NCBI GenBank assembly: GCA_017545535.1
Contig: JAFWMS010000002.1
Coordinates: forward strand, 31,116 to 95,115
From: Clostridia bacterium
Lineage (GTDB): Bacteria; Bacillota; Clostridia; Christensenellales; CAG-138
Reading direction: 5' to 3'
DNA: 64,000 bases
A model generated the notes under the pieces. That model worked only from the letters and a program-made list of their open reading frames with translations, had not been told where the DNA came from and ran no database searches. The first letter of the stretch is position 1. The number at the start of each line of letters is the position of its first letter. The translations under genes were made by a program, and so were the position numbers. This document shows, piece by piece, positions 49,180 through 64,000 of this stretch.

Positions 49180-52100
49180 ATGTCAAAACCATTCCCCGAT
49201 ATAACATGGCCAGTCTTTGAAGTATGCAATGCGAATAAGACAAAAGCCTTTGAAGATATGACACGAAAGCTTTTTAATTCTTATTTGGCGGGAAATCAAA
49301 CGTTAGTTTCAGATGGGATTAATCCGGGAATTGAGGTATTGCCGGTTTTGGAACCTGAAGCAAAAGATGATGCGCAAAGAAGATGGATTAGTTTTCAATC
49401 TAAGTACTTTGAAAAAAACACGAATTATAAGGACATTCTGGATTCTGCAAAACAGATAGTTAAGCATTATAAAGGTAAACTTGATTTAGTGTATTTGTTT
49501 TGTAATAATTCCCTTAAGATCTCATGTGATGGATACAAATCAGTTAAAAATCTGCTTGCAGAGGCGGGAATAGAACTACACCCAATAACCAACGAAATGA
49601 TTCTTGATCTTGTTTCCAAGTATCCTGAAATATATAATTATTATTTTCGGCCAAGAGATATCCCCGATTGTTCTCATGATAATCAATCTAGTTTCACGAT
49701 TGATCAAATAGTGTATTCGCTGAAAAACAGCCTAGATGCTGGGAAAATGCCTCCGCAAGATCCTGCTCTTTTAGTTGGTCTTATTCAAGAGAAGCTTGAT
49801 GTTTGCCGAGGTTTTGTTCTTAATATGGAACTGGATCAATTAAAACAGGAATTAGAAAAACTATTTTCTCATGATTTATGCGGAGTTGAGGGAAGTGACA
49901 CCTTACTGTTTTATCAGAACATTCTGAATATACATGAAAGAAAACCCATTCAAAATACGAACACTGATTTGATGCATAATGCAGAAATTGAATGGTTGAA
50001 AGCATTTTATGAAAATACATATGCTATTTCATTTGAGGAGTTCAATAAATACTCGGATGAAATTAGAATTCTCGTAATAGACCAATTGTTTGTCACAAAG
50101 CATTGGAACACGATAATATCTCTTCATGATCAATCGCTTACTCTGGGGAGTGCATGGGAACAGATGGAGCTTTACTATGGCCTCTCACTCTTCAATCTGC
50201 AGCGTTATGAAGAAGCAAGTGCCGTATTACATGGTTTGTTTGAAAAAACTAAGTGTCCAGCGCATGAAATGTATTCTAAGTTTGCGGATATTCAAGTTAT
50301 AAACAGTTTGTTCAGAACAGGAATGAATGCAAATGCCGATATGCTTGCCGAACTGGTCTCTTCTTTAGATGCCTATAAATGCATTAAGCAATATCAAGCA
50401 TCTGATCTTTTGATAGCCTTGCTGACCTTGGAGTCGTATTGTTATCTTGGGTTATCAAAAAAAGAGTATTTGGAAAAGGCCATTTCAACATATGACTCTT
50501 TTTCTGAGAGTGTACGCCTTAATGATATCGTTCGATTCTACTATGCATTATCCGTTGAACTTAATGGGAACATAGATAAAGCGCTAGAACTATATGAAAC
50601 GATGGAATGGAAAGATGACGAAACCATTGCGTATAGATACCTGTTCTGCCTAATCATGATCGGGCAAACCGAAACAGCCTATCAGAAATTCTATCTATTA
50701 CATGATGTTGCAAAAACAGAAAGGATATATGCACTTTCTTTGCTTGCTCTTCATAAAACAGACGTACAGATGGCTCGAAGTCTAGCAAAGAAGTGGCTTG
50801 AAGGGCATTCCAGCGATTTTTTGAGTATTGTTTCATTCATCGTGTATGTGGAAGATCGCGAGATTATTTCTTCGTTGATAATGCCACAATTACATGAGCT
50901 TATGACAACAGAAAGAATATCTTGTTTACCTTTTCGTCAACGTATTGAACTGATTATTTGGTTAGCTCAAAACATTGAAATTGAATTGATGGAACAAGTA
51001 CTTAAAACGATTGATGATGTTAATAACCTGAATGAATCGACAATAGTAGGAATATACCGGTCTTTAGCAGCAGCATGTGAAAAACCGAATGTTTTTATCA
51101 ACCCGATTCTTGAACCAACTACTATAGCCAAGTCAATTGAAACAATTACTGACAGATTCCTTAATGCAGGGATAAACAGAGAATTGTTTTTGCGAATCAA
51201 AATAGCGTGTGTCAATGCCAGACAAAGTTATATTAGCGCATTACAGTATTCAAAAGAATTGTTTGAACTTACTCAAGACGAAACAACCGCTAAAAACATA
51301 ATTAGTATTCTGGTATTACGTAAAGATAGTAATGAAACTGATTATCACCCATATATTGACATTTTGAAGGATTCTGAAGAACCTGACCAATGCATTACTG
51401 TTGCAGCAGGTTTATTGATGATAGGAAAGGAACAAGAAGCTGATTTATACGCATATAAAGCTATTTACTATTTAAACGGAAAAGATGACTTCAGTATCTA
51501 CAATAGTTTCTTTCAACTTGATAGTTTCAAAATGAGGTGGTTACAGGAGGATGAAGTCGTGCCCATTCGTTCTTCAAAGGGAAATGTGATTGTTACCCTC
51601 GAAGCATCTTCTTCAACTACCCAAGAAGCAAAAATGGACGTATGCCTGGATTCAGAAAAAGAATTCTCGCAAGACGGAAATAGAAGCATGGGTGTCTGCC
51701 ATATAAACTCAACAGATACAGATTATCTCAAAATCAAAAGTGCTGGACTGAATCAAGTTATAAAGCTAAAAAACGGAACATTTCAAGTAAAAAGAATCAT
51801 CCCCAGGAAAAAATTCTGCAGGGCTTTTGTGTTTAGCAAATTGCAGGCAAACCAAGAGTATTTTTCTGGGGTGATTATTTCCACGTTGCCTGAAAACCCA
51901 AAGGAAGCAATAGAACAGCTCCGAAAGCTTAGCGACAGGTCTGAACAAGCAAATACGAACCTGAAGATGTATCATTTTGAAGATAGTACCAATCTTGGCC
52001 TGCCAATTGAAGTTGTTGGATTTATGGATTATGATCGCTATCTTGGTACATCAAAGTATTTATTATTTCAACCTGATGAAGCTTTTTATTCTGGTGAAGT

Positions 52101-52887
52101 TGTTTACAGGTTTGATAGTGGAGAAGGTTTGAAGTATGTCATTACACTTTCAACTCTTGTGCTACTTAGCATATTAAATAGACTTGATGTTCTGGATGTA
52201 ATTAAGCAGAACATTATTATTCCAAAGAGTTATCTTCCTTTTTTTCATGATTTATTTGAAAAGGCACTTAATGATCAAGCAATGGACGCCAAAACGCTCT
52301 ATTTCGATGGAGATAAAACCATATTGTCTGACCAAGACCCCACTATCCCCGAAATATGGGAACGGATAGTACGTTTCTGCGACGATTGCGAAACTTATGA
52401 AATAATAGATCAAGAACGAATAGATTATTACATTCAAGAGTCATTAAGAGGTGAAGACTTATTATCAGCATTCAAATTGAACGTTATTCAATTAGATGCT
52501 TTGATACTATCAAGCAGAGAGTCTGCGATGTATCTATGTGATGATCTCTTTTTTCGTAAATTAGCCAACTGGGCTGGCATCAAACACTGTAATACAGCTT
52601 CGCTCCTATTGCTACATGACGATCAAGAATATATCGATTCATTTGTGAAGGAACTATCAAAAACGAACTATATATATGTACCTTTGGCAGGGGTTTCATT
52701 CAGCACAATCCAAGCGATGCAGGATGATATGTTAACTGGTAAAAGAAAAAAAGAACTGAACGCAGGGTGGATCCATCAATACTATGCTGCAAGAGAAGCT
52801 GTTCTAAACGAATTAATTAAGGATGAATTGTTCCATATGCAAATAGTGGATAATACCGATGAGTCAGTGACGGATGATAATAGTTAA
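49180..52887 (+). CDS. Orphan 1235-aa protein: Mrr-like PD-(D/E)xK nuclease head, long TPR-like helical region, GreA/B-C-like beta domain, PIN-like C-terminal domain (candidate defence/conflict effector)
   Basis: aa 23-145: FEDMTRKLF..SDGINPGIEV..WISFQSKYF..LVYLFCNN..IELHPITNEMILDLV follows the Mrr_cat pattern. aa ~300-780 are helix-repeat rich. aa 791-875 have GreA C-terminal-like spacing. aa 985-1130 (KYVITLSTLVLL .. QLDALILSSRESAMYLCDDLFFRKLA) are PIN-like. No GxxxxGK[ST] is present. Confidence 0.55.
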   Translation: MSKPFPDITWPVFEVCNANKTKAFEDMTRKLFNSYLAGNQTLVSDGINPGIEVLPVLEPEAKDDAQRRWISFQSKYFEKNTNYKDILDSAKQIVKHYKGKLDLVYLFCNNSLKISCDGYKSVKNLLAEAGIELHPITNEMILDLVSKYPEIYNYYFRPRDIPDCSHDNQSSFTIDQIVYSLKNSLDAGKMPPQDPALLVGLIQEKLDVCRGFVLNMELDQLKQELEKLFSHDLCGVEGSDTLLFYQNILNIHERKPIQNTNTDLMHNAEIEWLKAFYENTYAISFEEFNKYSDEIRILVIDQLFVTKHWNTIISLHDQSLTLGSAWEQMELYYGLSLFNLQRYEEASAVLHGLFEKTKCPAHEMYSKFADIQVINSLFRTGMNANADMLAELVSSLDAYKCIKQYQASDLLIALLTLESYCYLGLSKKEYLEKAISTYDSFSESVRLNDIVRFYYALSVELNGNIDKALELYETMEWKDDETIAYRYLFCLIMIGQTETAYQKFYLLHDVAKTERIYALSLLALHKTDVQMARSLAKKWLEGHSSDFLSIVSFIVYVEDREIISSLIMPQLHELMTTERISCLPFRQRIELIIWLAQNIEIELMEQVLKTIDDVNNLNESTIVGIYRSLAAACEKPNVFINPILEPTTIAKSIETITDRFLNAGINRELFLRIKIACVNARQSYISALQYSKELFELTQDETTAKNIISILVLRKDSNETDYHPYIDILKDSEEPDQCITVAAGLLMIGKEQEADLYAYKAIYYLNGKDDFSIYNSFFQLDSFKMRWLQEDEVVPIRSSKGNVIVTLEASSSTTQEAKMDVCLDSEKEFSQDGNRSMGVCHINSTDTDYLKIKSAGLNQVIKLKNGTFQVKRIIPRKKFCRAFVFSKLQANQEYFSGVIISTLPENPKEAIEQLRKLSDRSEQANTNLKMYHFEDSTNLGLPIEVVGFMDYDRYLGTSKYLLFQPDEAFYSGEVVYRFDSGEGLKYVITLSTLVLLSILNRLDVLDVIKQNIIIPKSYLPFFHDLFEKALNDQAMDAKTLYFDGDKTILSDQDPTIPEIWERIVRFCDDCETYEIIDQERIDYYIQESLRGEDLLSAFKLNVIQLDALILSSRESAMYLCDDLFFRKLANWAGIKHCNTASLLLLHDDQEYIDSFVKELSKTNYIYVPLAGVSFSTIQAMQDDMLTGKRKKELNAGWIHQYYAAREAVLNELIKDELFHMQIVDNTDESVTDDNS

Positions 52888-52927
52888 AATATCACTCTAT
52901 CATTTACATATCGATCTTTAGACAATA

Positions 52928-53573
52928 CTATGCAAGTATTGGCACAACGCTCGTCTGTAAATCCGGTATTATACTAGAGATATCCGTATCTGGAGATAGC
53001 CATTCCTCTGCCCTACTGTAAGGCACAATAACCGGCATGCGCGGATGAATCTCCCGGATGTTGGATGCAGCATCCTGTGACAGTATAGAGAAGCAGGGCA
53101 GTCGCTGCTGATCGGATGTCTTAATGTACAGACCTGCCAAGTACAAAGGTTCTCGATTCTCAGCATAGAAAGCGTATTTATCTTTTTTGTTCTTGTCTGT
53201 CTTATGCCACTCAAAGTAGCAGGAGGCCGGAATCAGGCAGCGCCGGTCGTTGATGCTGGTGCAGAATAGCGCCTTTTGCGGTTTCGTTTTTCAGCTCCAG
53301 AGTTGCGGTTTCACTGCGGGTGTTAAATACCAGCATGCCTTTGGTTGGATGATTGAAACCCCATTGCATGGGGAACGCTCCAATCTTCCGATGAGCCGCG
53401 GATGGGGCAATGACCGGGGCTATACAGATTCCTTGATCCAAGAACGCGATGTTCATGAAGAGAAATTCCGCAAACCAAGCAGGAAATTCCACTCTGATTG
53501 GGAGCTTGCCAATTTCTGCCATGGTGGCGATTTGGACGAAGATTGATGACTTAATAATTGTATTTATTTCCAC
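52928..53573 (-). pseudogene. Decayed SOS-response-associated peptidase (SRAP/YedK-like) gene
   Basis: The upstream frame gives APVIAP..FPMQWGFN..VFNTRSETA. The downstream frame gives RRCLIPASCYFEW..LYLAGLY..FSILSQDAASNIREIHPRMPVIV. The frameshift is near the A5 run at ~53,290. The N-terminus reads KSSIF where the catalytic MCGRF is expected, and there is no Met start. Confidence 0.7.
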
Positions 53574-53602
53574 CGCCCCGCAGGGGATGACTGCGGGGCG
53601 GT
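53572..53602. other. Boundary hairpin H1
   Basis: ACCGCCCCGCAG-gggatga-CTGCGGGGCGGT, a perfect 12-bp stem, lies exactly at the AT-rich to GC-rich transition. Confidence 0.8.
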
Positions 53603-53653
53603 GCTATGTCAGCCGGAATATAGCCGCCGCGCCATTGATTTTTCCCGGGGAGG

Positions 53654-53662
53654 TGATATACT
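53654..53662 (+). promoter_or_regulatory. Extended -10 (TGaTATACT) upstream of the MATE gene
   Basis: Sequence match only. Confidence 0.4.
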
Positions 53663-53696
53663 TTTGTCAGCAAATCCATCCCGAGAGAGCGGCGAC

Positions 53697-55052
53697 ATGC
53701 AGAGTACCGACCACAAAACCAAACAGTATCTGATGACGGAGGGGCCCATCCACCAACGGGTCCTGCGCTACGCGATCCCGGTGTTCATCGGGTATCTGTT
53801 CCAGCAGCTGTACAACACCGCCGACGCGCTGATCGTGGGGAACCTGGTGGGGCGCAACGCCCTGGCCGCCGTGACCAGCACGGGCTCCATCGTCTATTTG
53901 GCCGTGGGCACCTTCACCGGGTTCTCCATGGGCGCGGGCATCGTGATCGCCCGGTATATCGGCGCGGAGGATTCGGAGAAGACCTCCCAGACCGTCCACA
54001 CGGCCGTGGCCATGGGGCTGTTCTTCAGCGTGCTCTTCACGGCGCTGGGGGTCCTGTTCTCGCCGGTGATCCTGCGTGCCATGGGTACGCCGGAGGACGT
54101 GTTCGCCGACGCGGCCCTGTATCTGAAGATCTATTTCGCAGGCTGCACAGGCCTGGTCATGTACAACATCTTCGTGGGCATCCTGCAGGCCAGCGGCGAC
54201 TCCACCCATCCCCTCTATTACCTCATCACCAGCTCCGCCATCAACGTGGTCCTGGACATCACCCTGATCGGCGTCTTTCACATGGGCGTGGACGGGGCGG
54301 CTCTCGCCACCATCGTGTCCCAGGGGATCGCCGCGCTGCTGGTCATGATCCGCCTGCTGCGCCAGTCCGGGGACATCCGCATCTCGTTCCGCAAGATCGG
54401 GTTCCACTGGCGGCGGCTCCGGGAGATCGTGCTGTTCGGCCTGCCCACAGCGGTGCAGAACACGGTGATCGACTTTTCCAACGTGCTCATTCAGTCCTAT
54501 ATCAACTCCTTCTCCGCCGCTGCCATGGCGGGCATCGGCGCCTATGCTAAGGTGGAGGGCTTCGCCTTCTTGCCGGTCACGGCTTTCTCCATGGCCATGG
54601 CCACCTTCATCTCCCAGAACATCGGCGCCCAGAAGCTGGACAGGGTGAAGGAGGGCATCCGCTTCGGCCTGCTCTGCTCCGTGGCGGCTGTGGAGGTCGT
54701 GGGGATCATCATGTTCCTCTTCGCGCCCCAGCTGGTGGCCGCCTTCAACCAGGACCCCAACGTCATCGCCTACGGGGTGCTCCGGGGCCGGGTCTGCTCC
54801 TTGTTCTTCTGCCTGCTGGGCTTTTCCCACGTGTCCGCCGCCGTGTTCCGGGGCCTGGGCAAGCCCATGGTGCCCATGCTGGTCATGCTGATCTGCTGGT
54901 GCGCCGTCCGGGTGCTGGTGCTGATGACCATCGGGCAGATCTACCACAACATCCTGCTGGCCTGCTGGATCTACCCTATCACCTGGGGCATGAGCACCGT
55001 CGTGGACCTTGTCTATCTCGGCCACGTGCGCAAGAAAGGGTACGCCCTGTAG
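53697..55052 (+). CDS. MATE-family transporter
   Basis: The likely start is ATG 53697 (ORF from 53601). RVLRYAIPVFIGYLFQQLYNTADALIVGNLVG is a MATE signature, with 12 TM helices. Confidence 0.8.
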   Translation: MQSTDHKTKQYLMTEGPIHQRVLRYAIPVFIGYLFQQLYNTADALIVGNLVGRNALAAVTSTGSIVYLAVGTFTGFSMGAGIVIARYIGAEDSEKTSQTVHTAVAMGLFFSVLFTALGVLFSPVILRAMGTPEDVFADAALYLKIYFAGCTGLVMYNIFVGILQASGDSTHPLYYLITSSAINVVLDITLIGVFHMGVDGAALATIVSQGIAALLVMIRLLRQSGDIRISFRKIGFHWRRLREIVLFGLPTAVQNTVIDFSNVLIQSYINSFSAAAMAGIGAYAKVEGFAFLPVTAFSMAMATFISQNIGAQKLDRVKEGIRFGLLCSVAAVEVVGIIMFLFAPQLVAAFNQDPNVIAYGVLRGRVCSLFFCLLGFSHVSAAVFRGLGKPMVPMLVMLICWCAVRVLVLMTIGQIYHNILLACWIYPITWGMSTVVDLVYLGHVRKKGYAL

Positions 55053-55145
55053 CGGGCAAAGCCCTTCAGTCTGGTAAAAAACTAAAGCAAAAAGGATACG
55101 CCCTGTGAGCGGCGTATCCTTTTCTGCAATCGTATTTGCGCTGCT

Positions 55146-55787
55146 TTAGTCCAGCAATCCCTTGTCGATGATCTGGAAGTTGGCCCGGTGGATATAGAGG
55201 GCCTTGCCGTCGATCATGAGCTTGGTGAACTTGGGCAGATCCTCCTGGACCTCCCAATAGACCTTGTTCCCGGAGAAAGCGTAGATGGGCGCGCCCATCT
55301 GGGACTTGATGACCACCACCATGGGCTTGCCGAAGGCGTTTTTGATGCTGTTCACCTTGCCGGCGATCAGCACCGAATCCATGATCCCCGACGAGGAGCT
55401 GTCGATGTCGTCCAGATAGAATTCATACTCCGGGGAAAGCCGCGTGTCGTAGAAGATGCAGGTGTCGCCGCAGGAAATGAGCTGCTTCCCGTCGATAGTT
55501 ATGGTGATGACGGAGCTCAGCGTCTTGGTGGTGAGCCAGCCGTTGGAATCCGAGGAATAGGACGTCTCCTCCACCACGTTGTTGTCGATGTCGATCTTCT
55601 CCCCGTGGGTCCTGAGAGTGCGGATGCCCATGTTGTCGAAGATGTCAATGTTGTATTCGTTTCCGAAGATGCTGCCGTGCAGGTCGTGGATGCCGCTTTT
55701 GAGCATGGAGCAGCCGGCTTGTCCCACCGCCAGCAGCAGAATCAGGACCAGTGTCGCGATCCTCCGTTTCATCTTTCCGCTTTTCAT
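55146..55787 (-). CDS. Lipoprotein of unknown function
   Basis: Lipobox LLLAVGQAGC. The 213-aa protein is beta-rich. Confidence 0.6.
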   Translation of the reverse strand: MKSGKMKRRIATLVLILLLAVGQAGCSMLKSGIHDLHGSIFGNEYNIDIFDNMGIRTLRTHGEKIDIDNNVVEETSYSSDSNGWLTTKTLSSVITITIDGKQLISCGDTCIFYDTRLSPEYEFYLDDIDSSSSGIMDSVLIAGKVNSIKNAFGKPMVVVIKSQMGAPIYAFSGNKVYWEVQEDLPKFTKLMIDGKALYIHRANFQIIDKGLLD

Positions 55788-55895
55788 ATCGTTTTCTCCC
55801 TTGATTCGTCGTTATCCATGAGGATACCCCCTGTTTCGACCCTTGTCAATGGGGAGCAAGAGCGATTCTTTTGACCTCTACACTCAAAAAAACAA

Positions 55896-55934
55896 AAATT
55901 ATAGGTTGATTTTATCCTATAATTTGCGTATACT
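55896..55934 (+). promoter_or_regulatory. phd-doc promoter with a 10-bp inverted-repeat operator
   Basis: AAATTATAGG at 55896-55905 and CCTATAATTT at 55916-55925 bracket -35 TTGATT (55906-55911). A 17-nt spacer leads to -10 TATACT at 55929-55934. Confidence 0.6.
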
Positions 55935-55951
55935 GTTTTCGGAGGTACGAT

Positions 55952-56203
55952 ATGAACATAGATACCAACACCATTGCCACCATGACGGAGGCGAATCAAA
56001 ACTTTTCCCGCGTGGCGAAGAAGGCGGATCAGTATGGGGAGGCCATCATATTCAAGAACAACCGGCCCAAGTATCGGCTGATCGATCTGGAACAGGCGGG
56101 ATCGTCCCCGGATCGGGAGCTTACAGACGATGAAAAGATCGACATCGTGGCCCGGCAGATCCTGAAGGAATACAAACCGGCCTTTTTGGAGCTTGCCAAA
56201 TGA
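55952..56203 (+). CDS. phd: Phd/YefM-type antitoxin
   Basis: 83 aa. TMTEANQNFSRVAKKADQYGEAIIFKNNRPKYRLIDLE matches the Phd/YefM N-domain. It overlaps doc by 4 nt. Confidence 0.8.
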   Translation: MNIDTNTIATMTEANQNFSRVAKKADQYGEAIIFKNNRPKYRLIDLEQAGSSPDRELTDDEKIDIVARQILKEYKPAFLELAK

Positions 56204-56580
56204 TTAAGTTTTCCAGAGAAAAGGTGCTGTTGCTGCACCAGCTGATCACGGAGGAAACGGGCGGCGACGCCGGAGTGCGGGATTTCGGCCTGCTGGATTC
56301 CGCCCTGGAGAATATTTACCAGACCTTTGATGGGCAGGAGCTCTATCCCACCAAGCAGGAGAAGGGGGCGCGCCTGGGGTACACCCTGATCTCCAACCAT
56401 GCCTTTGTGGACGGGAACAAGCGCATCGGCATGTATGTGATGCTGAGCTTTCTTCAGGTCAACGGCATCCATATCCACCCCTCCAACGAGGAAGTGGCCC
56501 GGGTGGGCCTCGCCGTGGCGTCCGGAACCATGAGCTGCGAGGAGCTCCTCGCCTGGATCGTGGAGAATTCGGCGGAGTAG
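56200..56580 (+). CDS. doc: Doc (death-on-curing) Fic-fold toxin
   Basis: 126 aa with the Fic/Doc motif HAFVDGNKRIG. Confidence 0.85.
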   Translation: MIKFSREKVLLLHQLITEETGGDAGVRDFGLLDSALENIYQTFDGQELYPTKQEKGARLGYTLISNHAFVDGNKRIGMYVMLSFLQVNGIHIHPSNEEVARVGLAVASGTMSCEELLAWIVENSAE

Positions 56581-56608
56581 AGAGTAAGCATCGAAGGCCT
56601 GATTTGCC

Positions 56609-56683
56609 ATCTTTACTTTCTGGGTGCTTATCTCCGAGAAAAGTAAAGATTTTTCATCAGTTTTTGCCAAAAAAGTAAAGATT
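56609..56683. repeat. AAGTAAAGAT inverted plus direct repeat cluster
   Basis: ATCTTTACTTTC at 56609-56620 is inverted relative to GAAAAGTAAAGAT at 56638-56650. A third, direct copy AAAAAAGTAAAGATT lies at 56669-56683. Confidence 0.7.
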
Positions 56684-56702
56684 CCACCCAAAACCATGAT
56701 AA

Positions 56703-56729
56703 GCCCCGCAGGGAAATCCCCTGCGGGGC
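56703..56729. other. Boundary hairpin H2
   Basis: GCCCCGCAGGG-aaatc-CCCTGCGGGGC lies directly downstream (minus sense) of the recombinase remnant. Confidence 0.8.
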
Positions 56730-56737
56730 GTTAGCGT

Positions 56738-56820
56738 TTAGGGTTCCGTATCGGGCGGGTTGTCGTCCGCCTCGGCGGGTTGGGCAGTCTTTGGGGCGGG
56801 CATTTTAGGCTTGTGTTCTT
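56738..56820 (-). pseudogene. 3'-terminal remnant (~26 codons plus stop) of a second serine-recombinase gene
   Basis: The minus frame reads EHKPKMPAPKTAQPAEADDNPPDTEP*. The intact recombinase ends EKRKPKMAAAKAAQPPEPNDDPPAPEL*. The DNA is alignable to 59710-59795, and homology is lost at ~56,822. Confidence 0.75.
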
Positions 56821-56907
56821 ACCAACAGGCGATATATCAAGGTTTCCCCATATTCTTTTCCCTGAAATAGAAAATTACCAATTATCCTATACATAACGCT
56901 TTTAAAC

Positions 56908-56916
56908 TGCTATAAT
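56908..56916 (+). promoter_or_regulatory. Extended -10 (TGcTATAAT) upstream of the DUF262 gene
   Basis: Sequence match. SD taggagaag precedes ATG 56962. Confidence 0.45.
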
Positions 56917-56961
56917 TTAGCAAAGAGAGACATGTAGTTTTTCAGAATATAGGAGAAGAAA

Positions 56962-59655
56962 ATGAACGCACAAAAAGCACTTATCACGAACATTTTTAAT
57001 GGTGCAACATTGATCGAAGTTCCATTTTTTCAAAGGCCTTACGTTTGGAATGATGAACTGTGGGCAAAGTTTATTGAAGATATGGAGTTTATCGTCTTAA
57101 CCCATAAAACTCATTTCCTGGGAGCTATTATTCTTAAGGACGCTGGTCAACCAAAACCCGGAGACAAAGTTGCACAGCACCACACTATTGTTGATGGACA
57201 ACAACGGCTTACTACTTTTCTCCTCTTTCTGAAAGCGCTATGCCTTAAGCAGAATCAGATGACCTTTTTTGATTTTCAGTTTAGGATTATGGGGCAAGAG
57301 ATTGCATTGCGTCATGGGAAGAACGATAGGGATGCGTTTGAAAAGGCTATTTCTACGACAACAACTGCAAAAATCGAGAATCCAGAGCCTGGGTCAAGAA
57401 TAATTGAAGCTTTCAACTACTTTTTAGATCATGTGGATGCTTCGAAGTTGAACATTATGGAAATCATTATGAATGCACAGTTCGTCAGGATCGACTTGGA
57501 TATAAATGAAGACGAACAGCAGATTTTTGATACGATAAACTCCTTAGGGGTTAGGCTCACTACCGCCGAGCTGTTGAAGAATTACTTCTATTCTTGGCAG
57601 GATGTGGCGCTGTATGAAAAGTCTTGGGTGGAAGTGTTCGAAAAGGACAACGATACGCGCGCTTATTGGAACCAAGAATTTGAAATGGGCCGCATGACAA
57701 GAACACTGATCGATGTGTTCTTTGATTCTTATTTTCAGTTGTTTGTACAAGATTCCAAGTACAAAGTGTCCACCGAGGACAAGATAGCATACTCCCGGTT
57801 GGAGCATCTGGCTAAGTCCTACCAAGACTTTATCAAGGTTTACTGCAACGGTGACAAGCAGGTAATGCTCGGACCGATGCAACAATACGCGAACAAATTC
57901 CGGGAGATATTCGATCCTGCTTGTGTCGATCGTCAGATGCCTAAGCATCCCGGCATTGAGCGAATCAATGTCATCATTTTCGGGTTGAAGAACGCCACGC
58001 TGATTCCGTACATCCTCTATCTGGCCTGTAACGTGGAAGATTCGGCAGAACACAACAAGATGCTGGAAATCCTCGAAGCTTACATCATGCGGCGGATGGT
58101 CATACGGGCAACGACTAAAAACTACAACAATCTGTTCGTTTCGCTGATACTTAACAAGATAAACACGTCGGAAGCTCTGCTTTCAGCGTTAAAGAAGATG
58201 GGCGATGGGACCACCTATGTGCCGTCCGATGAAGAGCTGTTGGATGGGTTCAGGACGAGTAAGCTGAGCAACCTTCAGGCAAAGGGTGTTATCTACTATA
58301 TCGAATCCGGCATACGGTCTCCCAAGAGCGCCGTCGCCCTTTTAGGCTTTAGGCAATACAGTTTGGAGCACCTTATGCCAAGAAAATGGAGGAATCATTG
58401 GGCGCCCTGCGCCTCTGAGGATTTGGCTCGAGTCAGAGATCAAAAGCTTCAAACGCTCGGCAATTTCGCCATCATTACGCAGTCATTGAACACGTCAATC
58501 AGCGATGCAGATTGGCAGACAAAGAAGGCCGGAAAGAAAGACAATCCGGGTTTGGATCAATGTGCCGCTGGATTGATAACTATGGAAAATGTACTCTCTG
58601 AAAACACTTGGAGTGAGAGCAACATCAGTTCCAGAGCAGACTGGTTATGGGAAAACGCAAAACAGCTTTGGAAAAGTATCATGCCGGCAATTCATGATGG
58701 AACTATTTCTTCCGGGAGTTTGTTTCAATCTACTAACACTATAGAATTGCGAAAACGTTATTGGGCCTACGCACTGCCAGTTATAAAGAAGGAAAACTAT
58801 TATAGGGGAACTTTTTCAAACTGCAATCCACGAGGAACAGGATATATTAGTGGATACTTTGGACTAAGTGGTTTTAGGGTTGATTGCGTAGCGAATTATG
58901 ATGTAGCACGAATAGATTTTTATCTTGGGAATAGTGATGTTAAAAAGAATAAAGCTGCTTTCGATACTTTATTCTCTCATAAGGACGATATCGAAAAAGC
59001 ACTTGGTGTACAATTATCCTGGGATCGTGCTAATGGGAATGTTGCATCTTGGATGATCCACCACCTATATGGTGTGAGCATAGGAAACGAGCAGGATTGG
59101 CCGAAGATAGCTGAATTCCACGCTAAATGGAGCCGGAAGATTTGTGACGTGATGTTGCCTTATCTTCTTTCTCCAGAAATGAAAAAGCCTTTGGAAATCG
59201 GAGCATGGACCAGAGAATGGGCTAATCAGAAAGAAGGCATAGCGTTTGACGTTGGAAATTGCAGTCTCCATTATACTCGTTTTACCACTGCTGCTATGAC
59301 TGAGATTTTGCCTAATCTAAAGGATGTTCCGAGCGCTTGGAACACGGATTCGCATTATTTCTATGAAATAAACACTATGTCTTCCGGAAAAATACTGATG
59401 CAGATGGCGATAAATTCTAAGAATATTACAAGCGACTATCGTGCCATCTGTGATGCGATCCAGAAGGTCTATCCATCAAAGCATAATCCCTCCAAAGCTA
59501 ATACGGATGAATGGGAGTATCGCGTACCTTTCATGACAAAACCGCTTAATGCTACGAAAATGGAGAAAGAAGATGTATTCAAGCAACTTGACCAATGGCT
59601 AAATGAAGTGAAATCCTTTGAAAAAGACTTAAAGCAAAAACTTGAAAATCAATAA
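56962..59655 (+). CDS. GmrSD-like DUF262 + DUF1524 (His-Me finger) protein with C-terminal DUF4268-like extension (type IV restriction-like)
   Basis: DUF262: EVPFFQRPYVWNDELW..FLGAIIL..VDGQQRLTTF. DUF1524: SLEHLMPRKW..LGNFAIITQSLNTSISDADWQTKK. The tail RKRYWAYALPVIK..FDTLFSHKDDIEKALGVQLSWDR is DUF4268-like, followed by ~170 aa I could not assign. Confidence 0.75.
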   Translation: MNAQKALITNIFNGATLIEVPFFQRPYVWNDELWAKFIEDMEFIVLTHKTHFLGAIILKDAGQPKPGDKVAQHHTIVDGQQRLTTFLLFLKALCLKQNQMTFFDFQFRIMGQEIALRHGKNDRDAFEKAISTTTTAKIENPEPGSRIIEAFNYFLDHVDASKLNIMEIIMNAQFVRIDLDINEDEQQIFDTINSLGVRLTTAELLKNYFYSWQDVALYEKSWVEVFEKDNDTRAYWNQEFEMGRMTRTLIDVFFDSYFQLFVQDSKYKVSTEDKIAYSRLEHLAKSYQDFIKVYCNGDKQVMLGPMQQYANKFREIFDPACVDRQMPKHPGIERINVIIFGLKNATLIPYILYLACNVEDSAEHNKMLEILEAYIMRRMVIRATTKNYNNLFVSLILNKINTSEALLSALKKMGDGTTYVPSDEELLDGFRTSKLSNLQAKGVIYYIESGIRSPKSAVALLGFRQYSLEHLMPRKWRNHWAPCASEDLARVRDQKLQTLGNFAIITQSLNTSISDADWQTKKAGKKDNPGLDQCAAGLITMENVLSENTWSESNISSRADWLWENAKQLWKSIMPAIHDGTISSGSLFQSTNTIELRKRYWAYALPVIKKENYYRGTFSNCNPRGTGYISGYFGLSGFRVDCVANYDVARIDFYLGNSDVKKNKAAFDTLFSHKDDIEKALGVQLSWDRANGNVASWMIHHLYGVSIGNEQDWPKIAEFHAKWSRKICDVMLPYLLSPEMKKPLEIGAWTREWANQKEGIAFDVGNCSLHYTRFTTAAMTEILPNLKDVPSAWNTDSHYFYEINTMSSGKILMQMAINSKNITSDYRAICDAIQKVYPSKHNPSKANTDEWEYRVPFMTKPLNATKMEKEDVFKQLDQWLNEVKSFEKDLKQKLENQ

Positions 59656-59677
59656 ATGATATTGAAATAGAAAACAC

Positions 59678-59701
59678 GCCCCGCAGGTCTCCCTGCGGGG
59701 C
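59678..59701. other. Boundary hairpin H3 (also the likely terminator of the recombinase gene)
   Basis: GCCCCGCAGG-tctc-CCTGCGGGGC lies 9 nt beyond the recombinase stop. Confidence 0.8.
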
Positions 59702-59709
59702 GCTTGTGT

Positions 59710-61545
59710 TTATAGCTCCGGGGCGGGCGGGTCGTCGTTCGGCTCGGGGGGTTGGGCGGCCTTGGCGGCGGCCATTTTGGGCTTGCGCTTCTCGTAGTAA
59801 TAGCGGCGGTCGTACTCCTGCCGGCGGCGGCGCTTCTCGGCGGCCAGCTCCTCCTCGGTGAGGGGGACGGGCGGCTCCTCCTCGGGCAGATCCACCTTGC
59901 CGATGTGCTTGAGCATGATCTCCACGGGCTGGATCTTCATGCCGCCCACCCGCCGGGGGCCGTGGACCAGGATCCTGTCCACGAATTCCAGGATCATTTC
60001 GTTGGTCAGCACCGAGAAATCCGTGTACCTTTTGGCCAGGAACAGGAACTGCTCCGCCCGGTCCGTGTCCTTGTCGAAGGCGGCGAGCTGCCCTTGGTCG
60101 TCCGCCAGGGCCTTCTGTAGGTCCGCCTGCTCCGCTTCGTACCGGGCGGCGATCTGCTCATAACGGGCGAGGGGCAGGCGGTTCAGGGCGTAGTCCTCGT
60201 AGAGCTTCACGGAAAGCCGGTCCAGCTCGTCGATCCGCTTCTGGGCCTTGCGGATGCGCTGGCGGACGGCCTTGGCGTCGGCGGTCTGGCGCAGGGCGGA
60301 GGCCTCCCGGACCCGGTGCAAAAACTCCGTCCGGTTCCGGATGGCGAAGGTGGCGGCGGTGCGAATAGCGTCCAACGTCAGGGAGCGAAGGGCCTGGGTG
60401 GTGATGTAGTGGGAGAAGCAGGTCTTGGTTTCCCGCCGGGAGGACATGGTGTAGGTCCTGCACTGGTAGGAGTCCGCGGGCAGCAGCCCTGTCACGGGGT
60501 CGGGGGTGAAGGTGTGCCATTGGTTCTTGGCCATGCCCCGGTGGTTGTACATTTTGCTGCCGCAGTCCGCGCAGAACACCAGCCCCGTGAACACGTTGGG
60601 CTCGCCGGTGGTGTCCGTGCGGCGGACGGTCTTGCGGATCTGCTGCACGGCGTCGAAGGTGCTTTGATCTATGATGGGCTCGTGAGTATTCTCGATGATC
60701 TGCCACTGGCTGGGGTCGCAGTAGACCTTGGGGCTCTTATAGGTCTCCTTGTCGGTCCGATGGTTCACGGTGTGGCCCAGGTACTCCGGCCGGGAGAGCA
60801 TCTTCGCCACCGTCCGGGGGGCCCAGTCGTAGGGGCGATCCAGGTCCGTGGCGTAGAGTTCCAGGCCGTGGGTGTGCATATAGTAGGAGGGGCGCTCTAT
60901 CTTCCGCTCCCTAAGCTTGTTAGCGATGACGGCGGGGCCGTAGCCCTTCAGGGCAAGGGCGAAGACCTCCCGCACCACGGCGGCGGATTCCTCGTCGATC
61001 AGCAGGTGGTGCTTCTGCTCCGAGTCCTTTTTGTACCCGTAGAGCACCTTGTTGGAAAAGGGGATGTTCGCCCGGCTCCGGGCCAGGTAGGACTGCTTCT
61101 GCTTGCGGCTGGCGTCCCTCAAATACCACTCGTTCATGATGTTGAGGAAGGGGGCGAACTCGCCGCTCTGCCGATCCGCGCTGTCCACGCCGTTGGTGAT
61201 GGCGATGAACCGGACCCCGTGCTGGGGAAAGAACACCTCCGTGTAGAAGCCGGTCTGCAGATAGTCCCGGCCCACCCGGCTCATGTCCTTCACCAGCACC
61301 GCCGCCACCTTCCCACTTTCGATGTCCGCCACCAGCCGCTTCCAATCCGGGCGCTCAAAGTTGCCGCCGGTGTAGCCGTCGTCGGTGTAGTGGGCGCAGT
61401 TCGAGAAACCATGCTGCGCGGCATAGTCCTCCAACATGCGCTTTTGCATCACGATGGAATTGCTGTCCCCCAGCTGCTCGTCGTCCCGGGACAGGCGCTC
61501 GTATAGGGCTGTAATCTGTTCTTGTTCTGTCTGCCTGACGCTCAT
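59710..61545 (-). CDS. Large serine recombinase (resolvase catalytic domain + recombinase/zinc-ribbon + coiled-coil tail)
   Basis: 611 aa with the catalytic region ALYERLSRDDEQLGDSNSI..VLVKDMSRVGRDYLQ. Cys pairs CADCGSKM..CRTY lie in the zinc-ribbon region. Confidence 0.9.
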   Translation of the reverse strand: MSVRQTEQEQITALYERLSRDDEQLGDSNSIVMQKRMLEDYAAQHGFSNCAHYTDDGYTGGNFERPDWKRLVADIESGKVAAVLVKDMSRVGRDYLQTGFYTEVFFPQHGVRFIAITNGVDSADRQSGEFAPFLNIMNEWYLRDASRKQKQSYLARSRANIPFSNKVLYGYKKDSEQKHHLLIDEESAAVVREVFALALKGYGPAVIANKLRERKIERPSYYMHTHGLELYATDLDRPYDWAPRTVAKMLSRPEYLGHTVNHRTDKETYKSPKVYCDPSQWQIIENTHEPIIDQSTFDAVQQIRKTVRRTDTTGEPNVFTGLVFCADCGSKMYNHRGMAKNQWHTFTPDPVTGLLPADSYQCRTYTMSSRRETKTCFSHYITTQALRSLTLDAIRTAATFAIRNRTEFLHRVREASALRQTADAKAVRQRIRKAQKRIDELDRLSVKLYEDYALNRLPLARYEQIAARYEAEQADLQKALADDQGQLAAFDKDTDRAEQFLFLAKRYTDFSVLTNEMILEFVDRILVHGPRRVGGMKIQPVEIMLKHIGKVDLPEEEPPVPLTEEELAAEKRRRRQEYDRRYYYEKRKPKMAAAKAAQPPEPNDDPPAPEL

Positions 61546-61796
61546 GTGTTCATCCTTTCAGGCTGCCGACAGGACGGTTGCGGTACGTCCAGTATACCAC
61601 CTTCCCCGGCCAATGCAACTGGTTGATTTTGGATCATGTGGATGATCCGATCCTCCATATTCGATCCGTCGCTGTCCACGACGGTAACTTTAACTTGATA
61701 GATGGTGTTTTTGATCCTTCGGGTCATGTTCATGCGGGCTGGGCGGTCCTCCTTCCTCAAGGCCGTGATGGGTGCAATCGTGTCGGTTGATCTCAA
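61542..61796 (-). CDS. TnpW-like small transposon protein
   Basis: 84 aa with 4-nt overlap to the recombinase start. TRRIKNTIYQVKVTVVDSDGSNMEDRIIHMI resembles the recalled TnpW-family core (..IGNTTY.V.VHFS..S.ETxxDKI). Confidence 0.5.
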   Translation of the reverse strand: MRSTDTIAPITALRKEDRPARMNMTRRIKNTIYQVKVTVVDSDGSNMEDRIIHMIQNQPVALAGEGGILDVPQPSCRQPERMNT

Positions 61797-61887
61797 TGAT
61801 GCAGATCATTTGGGTGTCTCCTTTGATTACTATTTTGTCCAAATTGGTCCCCTTCCCACGCATGTGGTGCGATGCAAGTTTTGTCGT

Positions 61888-63270
61888 TTACCGTTCCCGG
61901 TCATAATGCGAGAACTCTTCGATGAGCTCCCTATCCTCGGTCAGGAAGGGGCGGAGGTTCGATTGGATGCGAGTGCTGTCCGCCTTGATCTGCTCACATA
62001 GACGCACTTCGGTTTTCAGACTGCGGAGCGCCCGATTTACCTCCACGAGATCAGCATACAGCCTTTCCCGCTCAAGTTTGAGGATGTCGATGGGGGTTTT
62101 TGAAAGAATCTGCTGTGCTTTTTGTAATTTGTCCTGCTCCTCCGGGGAGAGAGGACAGCCGGCTTCGTCCCGGCCCTCGAACATGGCCACGGTCTGCAGG
62201 GCGTCGTAGAGGGGCCGCTGCCGCTTCTTTTGCCCGTTCAGGATGATCCGGTGCTTGGTCTGCCAGTCGATCTGTCGGGTGAGATCGGCCATGCGGGCCT
62301 CCAGCTGCTCCAGGGTGTCGATCTTGTTATTGGTCAGGTAGGCCGCCGCCTTCTTCAGCTGCTCGAATCGCTTCAGCTCCTTGGGCGGCACCACATGCTG
62401 CATCTGCACCCCGTCGTTCACCAACCCCAATATGTATGTCCAGGCCAGGACACAGGCCCGGAAACCCGTGACCTTTCCACGGGGAAAGCGGACCCGCTGC
62501 TGCCGGGGCATGATCACCTCGAAGGTGGGGTCCGTCATGGCCTTGTCGATGTAGGCGATGAGGTCGTCCTCCGTCATGGCTTTGCCCTTCACCCGGGCCC
62601 GATGGCCATGCTCGTCTCCATAGGGGACGAAGGTAGGGTAGCGGCTCCGGTGCTGGATGGTGTAGCCCCGATCCTCCATGAGAGCGTAGAACTGCCCCAC
62701 GTCCATGGCCAGGGACAGGCATTCCGCCACGTCCCGGTCCACCAGCTGCCGCTGGGTCCGGATGCCCAGCTTCTGCATCCGCCATTCCACATAGGTCAGA
62801 GCGCGTTTGTTTGGCTCGTCGATAACCGACAGGCCGTACTCCCGGCAGAGCCTGTCCGACAGGCCCCGGATTTCCTTGAAGTAGGAATTGGGTGAGGAGT
62901 GGTACTTGTGCCCGTCCCGGTCCGAGACGGAATTGAAAATGATGTGGTTGTGGACATGAGCTTTGTCCACATGGGTGCCCACGATCACCTCGAACCCGTC
63001 CAGATACCGTTCCGCGAACCGGTTCCCGATCTCATGAGCCAGCTCCGGGGTGATCTCCCCGGGCCGAAAGCTCTGGATCAGGTGATAGGCCTGGACGCCC
63101 TCCGTCCGCCCGAACCGACGCTTGGTGTCCATCCAGGTCCGGGCCGCCGTTTCCGGCTGGCAGCCAATGGATGAAACGAACACCTGTTCACCCGTCTTCT
63201 TGGGGTTCACCACATACCGAATCAGCTTGTCGAGGCGGGCATCCTTGGCCAGTATCTTCGTCACCGCCAT
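61888..63270 (-). CDS. Relaxase/mobilisation nuclease (MobA/VirD2 family)
   Basis: ATG 63270 (MAVTKILAK..) lies inside ORF 61888..63501. AYHLIQSF and the His triad HVDKAHVHNHIIFNSVS are present. Confidence 0.85.
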   Translation of the reverse strand: MAVTKILAKDARLDKLIRYVVNPKKTGEQVFVSSIGCQPETAARTWMDTKRRFGRTEGVQAYHLIQSFRPGEITPELAHEIGNRFAERYLDGFEVIVGTHVDKAHVHNHIIFNSVSDRDGHKYHSSPNSYFKEIRGLSDRLCREYGLSVIDEPNKRALTYVEWRMQKLGIRTQRQLVDRDVAECLSLAMDVGQFYALMEDRGYTIQHRSRYPTFVPYGDEHGHRARVKGKAMTEDDLIAYIDKAMTDPTFEVIMPRQQRVRFPRGKVTGFRACVLAWTYILGLVNDGVQMQHVVPPKELKRFEQLKKAAAYLTNNKIDTLEQLEARMADLTRQIDWQTKHRIILNGQKKRQRPLYDALQTVAMFEGRDEAGCPLSPEEQDKLQKAQQILSKTPIDILKLERERLYADLVEVNRALRSLKTEVRLCEQIKADSTRIQSNLRPFLTEDRELIEEFSHYDRER

Positions 63271-63575
63271 CGTTCCACCTCCTCCCGCAGCTCCCGGTGG
63301 AGGGCTTTCACCCGGTCCCACTCGGCCCGGTCGATGAGGCCGATGGCGTTGGCCCGGTGGGCCAGCTGGTTCAGATTGTTGCCGATCCGGTCCACGGCCC
63401 GCAGCACCTCCCGGAGCTCCGGGGTGGGCTTGGCTTTCAGCTCCGTGTCCGTGATCAGCTTTCGCAGCAGCCGGGTTGAGCCCAGGCCTGTGCGGCGGCA
63501 CAGCTCCATCAATTTCTTATGCTCGGCTTCATTGAGCCGGGTCCCAACGTGAATGTTCCTTGTTCTAAATTCCAT
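63261..63575 (-). CDS. mobC: MobC-type relaxosome accessory protein
   Basis: ATG 63575 (MEFRTRNIHV..) lies inside ORF 63261..63743. The motif is RIGNNLNQLAHRAN. It overlaps the relaxase start by 10 nt. Confidence 0.8.
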   Translation of the reverse strand: MEFRTRNIHVGTRLNEAEHKKLMELCRRTGLGSTRLLRKLITDTELKAKPTPELREVLRAVDRIGNNLNQLAHRANAIGLIDRAEWDRVKALHRELREEVERWR

Positions 63576-63660
63576 GATCCCTTTCCCCGCGCCTCGGCGC
63601 GGCATATGGGTCCGGGTGCCCCGGCAAGCGCATTTGGAACGCCAAATGCTATGCTTGCAA

Positions 63661-63697
63661 GGACATCCCAGGATACTGCGTATCCCTCGGGATGTCC
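63661..63697. promoter_or_regulatory. Candidate oriT inverted repeat
   Basis: GGACATCCC..GGGATGTCC outer arms enclose AGGATAC-tgc-GTATCCc, upstream of mobC. A second hairpin GCATTTGG-aacg-CCAAATGC lies at ~63630-63651. Confidence 0.35.
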
Positions 63698-64000
63698 GTC
63701 TCCTGTTAGGCGCAGCCCCTCCGGAAACCAACTTTGCGGCCATAGCCGCTGTACGATACCCGCGGGCTACAGCCCTGCGCCCGTCCCCACTCGGTCCCTA
63801 CGGACTTACTCTCAACTTTTGTGTCCAGCCAACGTGTGTACTGGAAGAATGACGAATCCTCATCTTCTGAACCTCCTTTCCTTCCTTTTTGTCCCTTTCC
63901 CGCCGCAGCGGTGCGATACGATCAGCCCTTGGCCTCACCTCCTTTCCGTAACTTCGCGCCAAGTTGGCACGAAGTTAGCTCACGGCTACTGATTTGAACT

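Follow-up and report, generated by a model that had tools for sequence, protein, structure and literature searches.

A dead recombinase end flanking a restriction gene

The locus described here lies in a 64-kb stretch of DNA from a Clostridia bacterium (hereafter the window, whose positions serve as coordinates throughout) and consists of a GmrSD-family type IV restriction gene flanked by the two copies of a 118-bp direct repeat, which occupy 56703-56820 and 59678-59795 at a spacing of 2972 bp. Each copy comprises a GC-rich hairpin together with the final ~26 codons of a gene for a TnpX-like large serine recombinase. The right copy (codons at 59713-59795 plus the hairpin) forms the true end of an intact recombinase open reading frame (ORF) on the minus strand (59710-61545, 611 aa; translated end ..YYYEKRKPKMAAAKAAQPPEPNDDPPAPEL*), whose product carries the Pfam domains Resolvase, Recombinase, Zn-ribbon and DUF4368, displays the nucleophilic-serine motif YERLSRDDEQ in its translation and matches TnpX (PDB 2mhc) over the N-terminal catalytic domain with an E value of 1e-43. 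The left copy reads ..EHKPKMPAPKTAQPAEADDNPPDTEP on the minus strand, with an in-frame stop immediately upstream at 56819-56821, and is a truncated, dead recombinase 3' end of 26 codons plus a stop codon (56738-56820). The copies enclose an AT-rich insert of 2.85 kb that holds the intact restriction gene and has a GC content of 0.43-0.44 (57001-59000), as compared to ~0.61 elsewhere in the window.

The repeat was recovered in four ways: by MAFFT, by a repeat finder, by BLAST against the whole window and by global alignment. Identity amounts to 77% in the gapped global alignment and 79-80% in local alignments; the repeat finder reported family D1, a gapless match of 95 nt at 80%, and the BLAST E value was 3e-15. 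The original prediction had held that the left sequence is homologous to the C-terminal end of the recombinase, and aligning both copies, as it had proposed, bears this out over the full 118 bp, with similarity reaching beyond the hairpin. When the hairpin is removed, the stub (56734-56825) still matches 59724-59792 at 82.6% identity (E 3.7e-12), which is its sole match in the window. It is this DNA match, rather than the protein match, that supports the homology of the repeats, as similarity between the translated ends is slight (65% identity over 20 aa, E 0.5). The longest run of identity between the copies in the global alignment is 12 nt, and their homology fades at approximately 56813-56820.

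The two hairpins are of the same type, as had also been claimed, sharing the stem GCCCCGCAGG/CCTGCGGGGC and differing in their loops (AAATC on the left, TCTC on the right) as well as in the bases that flank them. The left hairpin (56703-56733) has the stem GCCCCGCAGGG/CCCTGCGGGGC around its AAATC loop and a predicted folding energy of -28 to -30 kcal/mol (z ~-4), and the right hairpin (59676-59703) folds at a predicted -27.6 and -28.4 kcal/mol (z ~-6), with z-scores ranging overall from -3.9 to -6.4. The right hairpin was matched on both strands in a terminator scan and is predicted to be a bidirectional intrinsic terminator common to the convergent GmrSD and recombinase genes. The left hairpin, which the scan did not flag because its T-run is weak, once served as terminator to the recombinase copy that was lost and now stands downstream of the convergent toxin gene doc. 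No Rfam family was detected in 52500-64000.

A third hairpin with the GCCCCGCAGG stem, at 53573-53601, was considered as another stub and rejected, since no recombinase-like sequence adjoins it and the related loci L022 and L026 lack the hairpin; it is probably an unrelated terminator. Beside it, at 52928-53573, are broken minus-strand ORFs whose translation, judged by eye, resembles an SOS-response-associated peptidase pseudogene.

The restriction gene and its junction

The restriction gene (56962-59655, plus strand) encodes an intact protein of 897 aa, and the claim that a DUF262 gene is located between the stub and the intact recombinase is confirmed by its Pfam domains. GmrSD_N (DUF262, PF03235) spans residues 8-209 with an E value of 1e-33 and retains the DGQQR motif as IVDGQQRLTT, and the His-Me finger domain GmrSD_C (DUF1524, PF07510) spans residues 421-563 with an E value of 4e-14; its motif EHLMP...GN...N (EHxxP) can be read in the translation as LEHLMPRKW ... 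LGNFAIITQSLNTSISD. Beyond these, the protein carries DUF4268 and one more domain towards the C terminus; PDC-S11 and PDC-S26 match its C-terminal third, and it is matched by the PADLOC defence models Orf5, HEC-06 and mREase_IV. Its identity to solved DUF262 proteins is low, and the defence role predicted from its domains would be an anti-phage one, in which modified DNA is cleaved. The exact 897-aa protein was found on 22 contigs.

Upstream of the gene, the stub gives way to junction DNA (56821-56880), followed up to 56961 by the promoter region and ribosome-binding site of the GmrSD gene on the plus strand. The predicted promoter (56888-56916) has the form TATACA-17-TG-TATAAT, an extended -10 promoter with 10/12 matches in addition to its TG extension. 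Similarity to GmrSD genes in unrelated contexts begins at 56881 (L109). We also considered whether such genes always travel with the recombinase; this was dismissed, as homologues of 70-83% identity adjoin YpeB, WYL or a DNA methylase/AIPR island instead.

The mobilization module and the outer flank

Adjoining the recombinase, and oriented like it on the minus strand, is a mobilization module (61542-63605), recognized from Pfam, from gene calls on relatives and from weak NCBIfam relaxase matches. It consists of a small 63-aa ORF adjoining the recombinase (61542-61733), a MobA/VirD2-type relaxase of 460 aa (61888-63270) and a MobC/NikA-like protein (63261-63605). The combination of its own recombinase, a relaxase and an accessory protein, by which an integrative mobilizable element (IME) is recognized, is present here in adjacent genes of the same orientation, and no type IV secretion genes occur in the 10 kb beyond mobC available in L011/L029, a stretch that does not reach the right end of the element. 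Based upon this gene content and the sharp left boundary, we infer that the mobC-relaxase-recombinase module is probably an IME, and its boundaries are placed on the same grounds. A search for the remaining 5' part, or any other fragment, of a second recombinase within 10 kb was negative. Beyond mobC, to the right of the window, L011 (1-6102) encodes a Fic protein (347 aa) and a type I restriction HsdR together with a 282-aa ORF and a TIR-domain protein, so the recombinase module is bordered by defence-type genes on both sides.

On the left, the locus abuts a phd-doc toxin-antitoxin pair on the plus strand (phd 55952-56203, doc 56200-56580; Pfam PhdYeFM_antitox and Fic/DOC), with genes for a DUF5052 lipoprotein and a MATE transporter located farther left. 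Between doc and the left hairpin, a spacer (56581-56702) contains three copies of the 11-nt motif AAAGTAAAGAT, at 56609-56619 (minus), 56640-56650 (plus) and 56672-56682 (plus), as compared to 0.35 matches expected, and the first two copies form a 42-bp palindrome with an 18-20-nt centre. The motif accompanies the recombinase 3' end beside three different outer flanks (L030, L031/L116 and L032/L115) and, next to the recombinase terminator, is conserved in four flank contexts; in L030 it lies 50-125 bp beyond the recombinase stop codon and in L032 directly upstream of an HTH-Fic gene. It may represent a candidate element end or recombination (att) site or, given its position in L032, a promoter or operator remnant. 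In L119, the whole of phd-doc is absent (the equivalent of 55855-56608; L119 1131-1147) and the DUF5052 gene is joined almost directly to the motif region.

A cargo hotspot beside the recombinase

Relatives of the locus were gathered by exact-protein look-ups, by a genome scan for the recombinase and by a metagenome scan with the recombinase-tail pattern, which together provided 80 genome loci, 4 metagenome loci and ~30 exact-protein contigs; the same pattern found no match in the viral contigs scanned. Seven arrangements (S1-S7) occur between the doc stop codon and the recombinase hairpin. The layout of the window (S1) recurs in >20 metagenome contigs, in L022 and L118 and in the rumen metagenome-assembled genome (MAG) RUG14713 (L029). 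In S2, found in two independent assemblies (L026/L027), 56850-59552 is deleted from the S1 layout, leaving both repeats in place with most of the GmrSD gene gone, and the 5' end of the recombinase is lost as well. S3 (L030, a rumen Christensenellales MAG) consists simply of doc, the spacer, the motif, one hairpin and the intact recombinase, with no GmrSD gene. S4 (L032/L115) has genes for GIY-YIG and HTH-Fic proteins between doc and the motif, and S5 (L031/L116) has a different outer flank. In S6 (L117), doc is followed by the left motif, the left hairpin, a stub of ~15 nt, McrB (851 aa), McrC, the right hairpin and the recombinase. In S7 (L119), phd-doc is missing, and a stub with internal deletions stands ahead of a GmrSD gene of 94% identity. 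The same right hairpin is adjoined in L114 by Sel1, TIR-LRR, TIR and McrBC genes.

It is evident from these arrangements that the spot beside the recombinase is a cargo hotspot, which is occupied by GmrSD, by McrBC, by other genes such as the HTH-Fic and GIY-YIG pair, or by nothing. The proposal that the defence gene had taken the place of a recombinase holds insofar as a truncated, dead 3' end is present, but it was too narrow, as the same spot holds McrBC or other genes in relatives. The phd-doc flank is 93-100% conserved in L022, L026, L029, L030, L032 and L117, and every arrangement that keeps doc diverges directly after its stop codon, whereas on the recombinase side the cargos of all variants are joined within ~10 nt of the hairpin. 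Whole hairpins, loops included, stay with the recombinase side in all variants, and the hairpin loop was rejected as the crossover site for this reason. The stub itself is decaying as a pseudogene would, with a shortened form in L117 and internal deletions in L119. The duplicated-tail layout is confined to one chromosomal site and was found in only L029, which is of the same lineage, among the 80 recombinase loci, thus ruling out the duplicated tail as a general feature of this recombinase family.

The repeats had further been expected to mediate loss or gain of the defence gene by homologous recombination, and here the evidence points the other way. Efficient RecA-dependent exchange usually needs roughly 20-30 nt of identity; the longest identical run of 12 nt falls below this minimum, and the repeats, at 77-80% identity overall, are poor substrates for homologous recombination. 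The one GmrSD loss that was observed (L026/L027) has its endpoints outside the repeats and kept both of them. A single-repeat variant without a DUF262 gene, the existence of which had been anticipated, was indeed found in L030, but it is not a recombinant of left and right copies: its copy agrees with the right copy at 98% and with the left one at 79%, it is right-type through the whole hairpin, and its spacer and motif constitute a diverged allele (57 nt align, at 88%), even though doc and the recombinase gene match those of the window at 94-97%. With L030 purely right-type and the deletion in L026/L027 having other endpoints, no chimeric single repeat with the same flanks exists among the natural variants recovered. 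The other variant that had been anticipated, with two intact recombinases, is absent from all of the genome loci, metagenome loci and exact-protein contigs surveyed.

Mosaic alleles at the locus

The recombinase tail is a hypervariable patch covering the last ~27 codons (59702-59795), which are rich in Pro, Ala, Asp and Glu and were compared in L022, L026 and L032. Alleles with gene bodies of 94-97% identity have tails that are only 75-83% identical, differing by 20-25% in the last 90 nt, and the right tail of L022 is 75-81% identical to that of the window. Because the tails vary this much between alleles, the 80% identity of the left and right copies is an ordinary allelic distance and, falling within allelic variation, does not date the duplication. 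The left-copy allele of L026/L117 resembles right-type tails in the hairpin-proximal 50 nt, which suggests patchy gene conversion between the copies.

The restriction genes are mosaic as well. When L029 is compared with the window, identity is 96-100% in the flanks, the stub and the junction, the recombinase is 98.5% identical as protein and ~97% as DNA, and the GmrSD gene is 99-100% identical except for two blocks (56993-57592 and 58393-59092), where identity is 63-82%. The GmrSD gene of L022 is a recombinant that combines the first block of the window with the second block of L029. This mosaic structure shows that recombination at the locus is frequent, and block swapping of this kind, as would be expected of defence genes under diversifying pressure, suggests that the GmrSD gene is in use. 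Similarly, the McrB proteins of L114 (5708-7789, 693 aa) and L117 (1262-3817, 851 aa) are 98% identical in the C-terminal AAA+ half and unrelated in their N-terminal halves, which likely reflects a swap of the DNA-recognition domain.

Origin of the repeat pair

The data show the repeat with its dead stub, genes that are intact, other occupants of the same spot and a deletion that was not mediated by the repeats. We consider it probable that the repeat pair is a scar, left at the cargo end of an IME abutting phd-doc when related elements recombined and cargo was acquired. The plain form of the element, seen in L030, has the layout doc, spacer, triple motif, terminator hairpin and recombinase. 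An incoming AT-rich segment with the GmrSD gene, joined to a second allelic hairpin and recombinase, would then have displaced the resident copy. On the right side, this would have entailed a homologous exchange within the recombinase body, between the resident element and an incoming relative carrying GmrSD beyond its hairpin. On the left side, an illegitimate join would have fallen 87 nt inside the resident recombinase tail and, for that reason, the resident hairpin and the last 26 codons would have been left behind as a dead stub. The outcome would be the present arrangement, in which the recombinase is intact, the GmrSD gene has a promoter of its own and shares the bidirectional terminator of the recombinase, and an inert stub and its hairpin lie behind doc. 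The route we infer, with one homologous and one illegitimate end, has precedents: recombination of this type is known in several bacteria (PMC3240628), and displaced 3' ends are left by such exchange in other systems (PMC5361080). As such, the feature is an ordinary recombination scar and reveals neither a new mechanism nor a new system.

Several observations sit uneasily with an origin by acquisition from a related element. As the recombinase tails are exchanged between alleles, the divergence of the two copies neither dates the duplication nor identifies its source. An intact recombinase with the left-type tail (..KPKMPAPKTAQPAEADDNPPDTEP) was not found among the relatives, so that allelic divergence alone points to a separate donor or resident element. 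None of the related contigs yielded the right end of the element or an empty site, and a search for an inverted right-end copy of AAAGTAAAGAT within 10 kb yielded only 2-mismatch matches at chance level. No sequence outside this layout matched the 60 bp at 56821-56880. Furthermore, the right junction recurs with both GmrSD and McrC cargos, which random illegitimate joining does not explain; this may be due to common descent of the junction or to a hotspot associated with the hairpin.

A rather unlikely alternative is that two related elements accumulated in tandem beside doc, and that the doc-proximal one, with GmrSD at its far end, later lost its mob genes and most of its recombinase through an internal deletion. 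In this case, a remnant consisting of the element end, the stub and GmrSD would abut an intact second element, whose own end would lie a few nt past the right hairpin. Tandems, nested elements and remnants are common among the integrative and conjugative elements (ICEs) as well as the IMEs of related Firmicutes (PMC12084326), and such a history would be in keeping with a right junction that recurs at no more than ~10 nt from the hairpin whether the neighbour is GmrSD, McrC or of the motif type, with stub lengths that differ between the version carrying GmrSD and that carrying McrBC, a pattern to be expected from independent internal deletions, and with the defence-rich region to the right of mobC in L011 (Fic, HsdR, TIR). 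However, the conserved half-site that would be expected left of ~59670 is missing, as the GmrSD and McrC 3' ends are unrelated there and their stop codons lie only ~20 nt from the hairpin. In L030, moreover, the recombinase and hairpin run into a motif region that is absent from the intact copy of the window, so a second deletion would be needed, and the lack of any further recombinase fragment within 10 kb likewise speaks against a decayed neighbour.

That the repeats are functional exchange arms appears very unlikely. A circle bearing one hairpin and tail unit together with GmrSD would integrate and loop out by single-crossover homologous recombination, and such a crossover would account for both repeat boundaries together; a single-copy state without GmrSD does exist in L030, and the right-type-like stretch in the left copy of L026/L117 hints at patchy conversion. 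Yet the copies share no identical run longer than 12 nt at 77-80% identity, L030 is right-type throughout with a diverged motif allele rather than the chimera expected, the observed loss in L026/L027 used other endpoints, the repeat of the McrBC version is only ~45-50 bp long, and the layout is known from one chromosomal site only. A broader proposal, which we regard as quite unlikely, is that the recombinase terminator hairpin and tail form a dedicated exchange point for defence modules (GmrSD, McrBC and others), operating through hairpin-directed breakage and joining or through single-crossover small circles; if this were true, related IMEs would trade type IV restriction cassettes via a portable homology arm. 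An integron-type cassette was rejected, as there is no IntI tyrosine integrase nearby and no attC, and the hairpins are perfect GC-rich terminators beyond which the stub extends.

Likewise very unlikely, in our estimation, is a partial duplication of the recombinase 3' end in situ, through replication slippage or template switching at the GC-rich hairpin with capture of GmrSD at the break, followed by divergence of the copies or by replacement of the right tail with another allele. Perfect hairpins rich in GC are known as hotspots of illegitimate events, and the junctions all cluster at the hairpin base. Since right tails are demonstrably replaced between alleles (L022), the divergence of the copies would also be compatible with such an origin. 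Conversely, the hairpin loops and flanking bases differ between the copies, and no intermediate was found among the variants. The present data do not separate duplication in situ from acquisition by one homologous and one illegitimate join.

Relation to known systems

In Tn4451, tnpX is located at the left end and reads inward, and the relaxase TnpZ is of the Mob/Pre type. The recombinase described here shares with TnpX of Tn4451/Tn4453 from Clostridium the catalytic domain, the Recombinase/Zn-ribbon/DUF4368 architecture and an accompanying mobilization function, but unlike in Tn4451 it reads outward and is associated with a MobA/VirD2-type relaxase and MobC. By gene order, the module resembles IME_Rho_tet and other serine-recombinase IMEs from gut Firmicutes (PMC12904643; reviewed in PMC5704250), which have the same orientation, with the recombinase last, and variable cargo. 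IME_Rho_tet has the order mobC, relaxase, serine recombinase and a boundary 81-90 bp past the recombinase stop (PMC12904643). Its cargo is tet(W), whereas the cargo here consists of defence genes, located at least partly at the recombinase end.

In the mobilomes of Oscillospiraceae, remnants and composite elements are commonly encountered, and defence genes often form part of the cargo (PMC12084326). Similar to the defence hotspots of other mobile elements, such as P2/P4, the SXT ICE, pipolins (PMC11551731) and the ICE/IME cargo of Faecalibacterium (PMC12084326), alternative defence systems are found at one fixed position; unlike in those hotspots, the spot lies directly against the recombinase terminator, and a recombinase stub remains visible from one exchange. 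A parallel can likewise be drawn with the orphan 3' ends of polymorphic toxins and type VI secretion systems (PMC5361080), in which an incoming module with a homologous anchor displaces a resident 3' end and the fragment persists downstream. There, the displaced tips encode reusable toxins and immunity genes, whereas the stub here encodes an unstructured recombinase tail with no evident use. The restriction enzyme itself resembles the type IV enzymes GmrSD, BrxU and SspE in having DUF262 with DGQQR and a DUF1524 His-Me finger in a single-gene system, and exceeds them by the extra DUF4268 and the further, PDC-S11/PDC-S26-like C-terminal domain.

The locus provides a natural example of defence-gene turnover inside small mobilizable elements of uncultured rumen Clostridia, and its value is that of a well-documented cargo hotspot in which the restriction genes are rebuilt in blocks. 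The stub is a dated-looking scar that could be used for tracing such exchanges. The case also calls for caution, since direct repeats around a gene, when short and diverged, are not in themselves a sign of repeat-mediated mobility.

Neighbouring features

Further to the left, at 49180-52887, a 35% GC island contains an ORF of 1235 aa with weak PIN-TPR-GreABC and TPR matches and no PADLOC match. The same ORF is present in L021 and L023; in its place L022 has HTH, M78 peptidase and DUF4417 genes and L026 has a thioredoxin gene, and all three left contexts meet the common sequence at ~53630.

On the other side, upstream of mobC (63942-64000 and on past the edge of the window; L001 15550-16900), there is a 1.3-kb non-coding stretch of at least 25 palindromic hairpin units of 26-28 nt, AACTTCnnnCCAACTTGGnnnGAAGTT, the stems of which vary but remain complementary. 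L008 lacks 1173 bp of this stretch. The units may form an oriT or a single-strand-origin array, or may belong to a new class of repeat. Behind the recombinase genes of more distant relatives (L033-L038 and L044), single hairpins of a similar kind are found.

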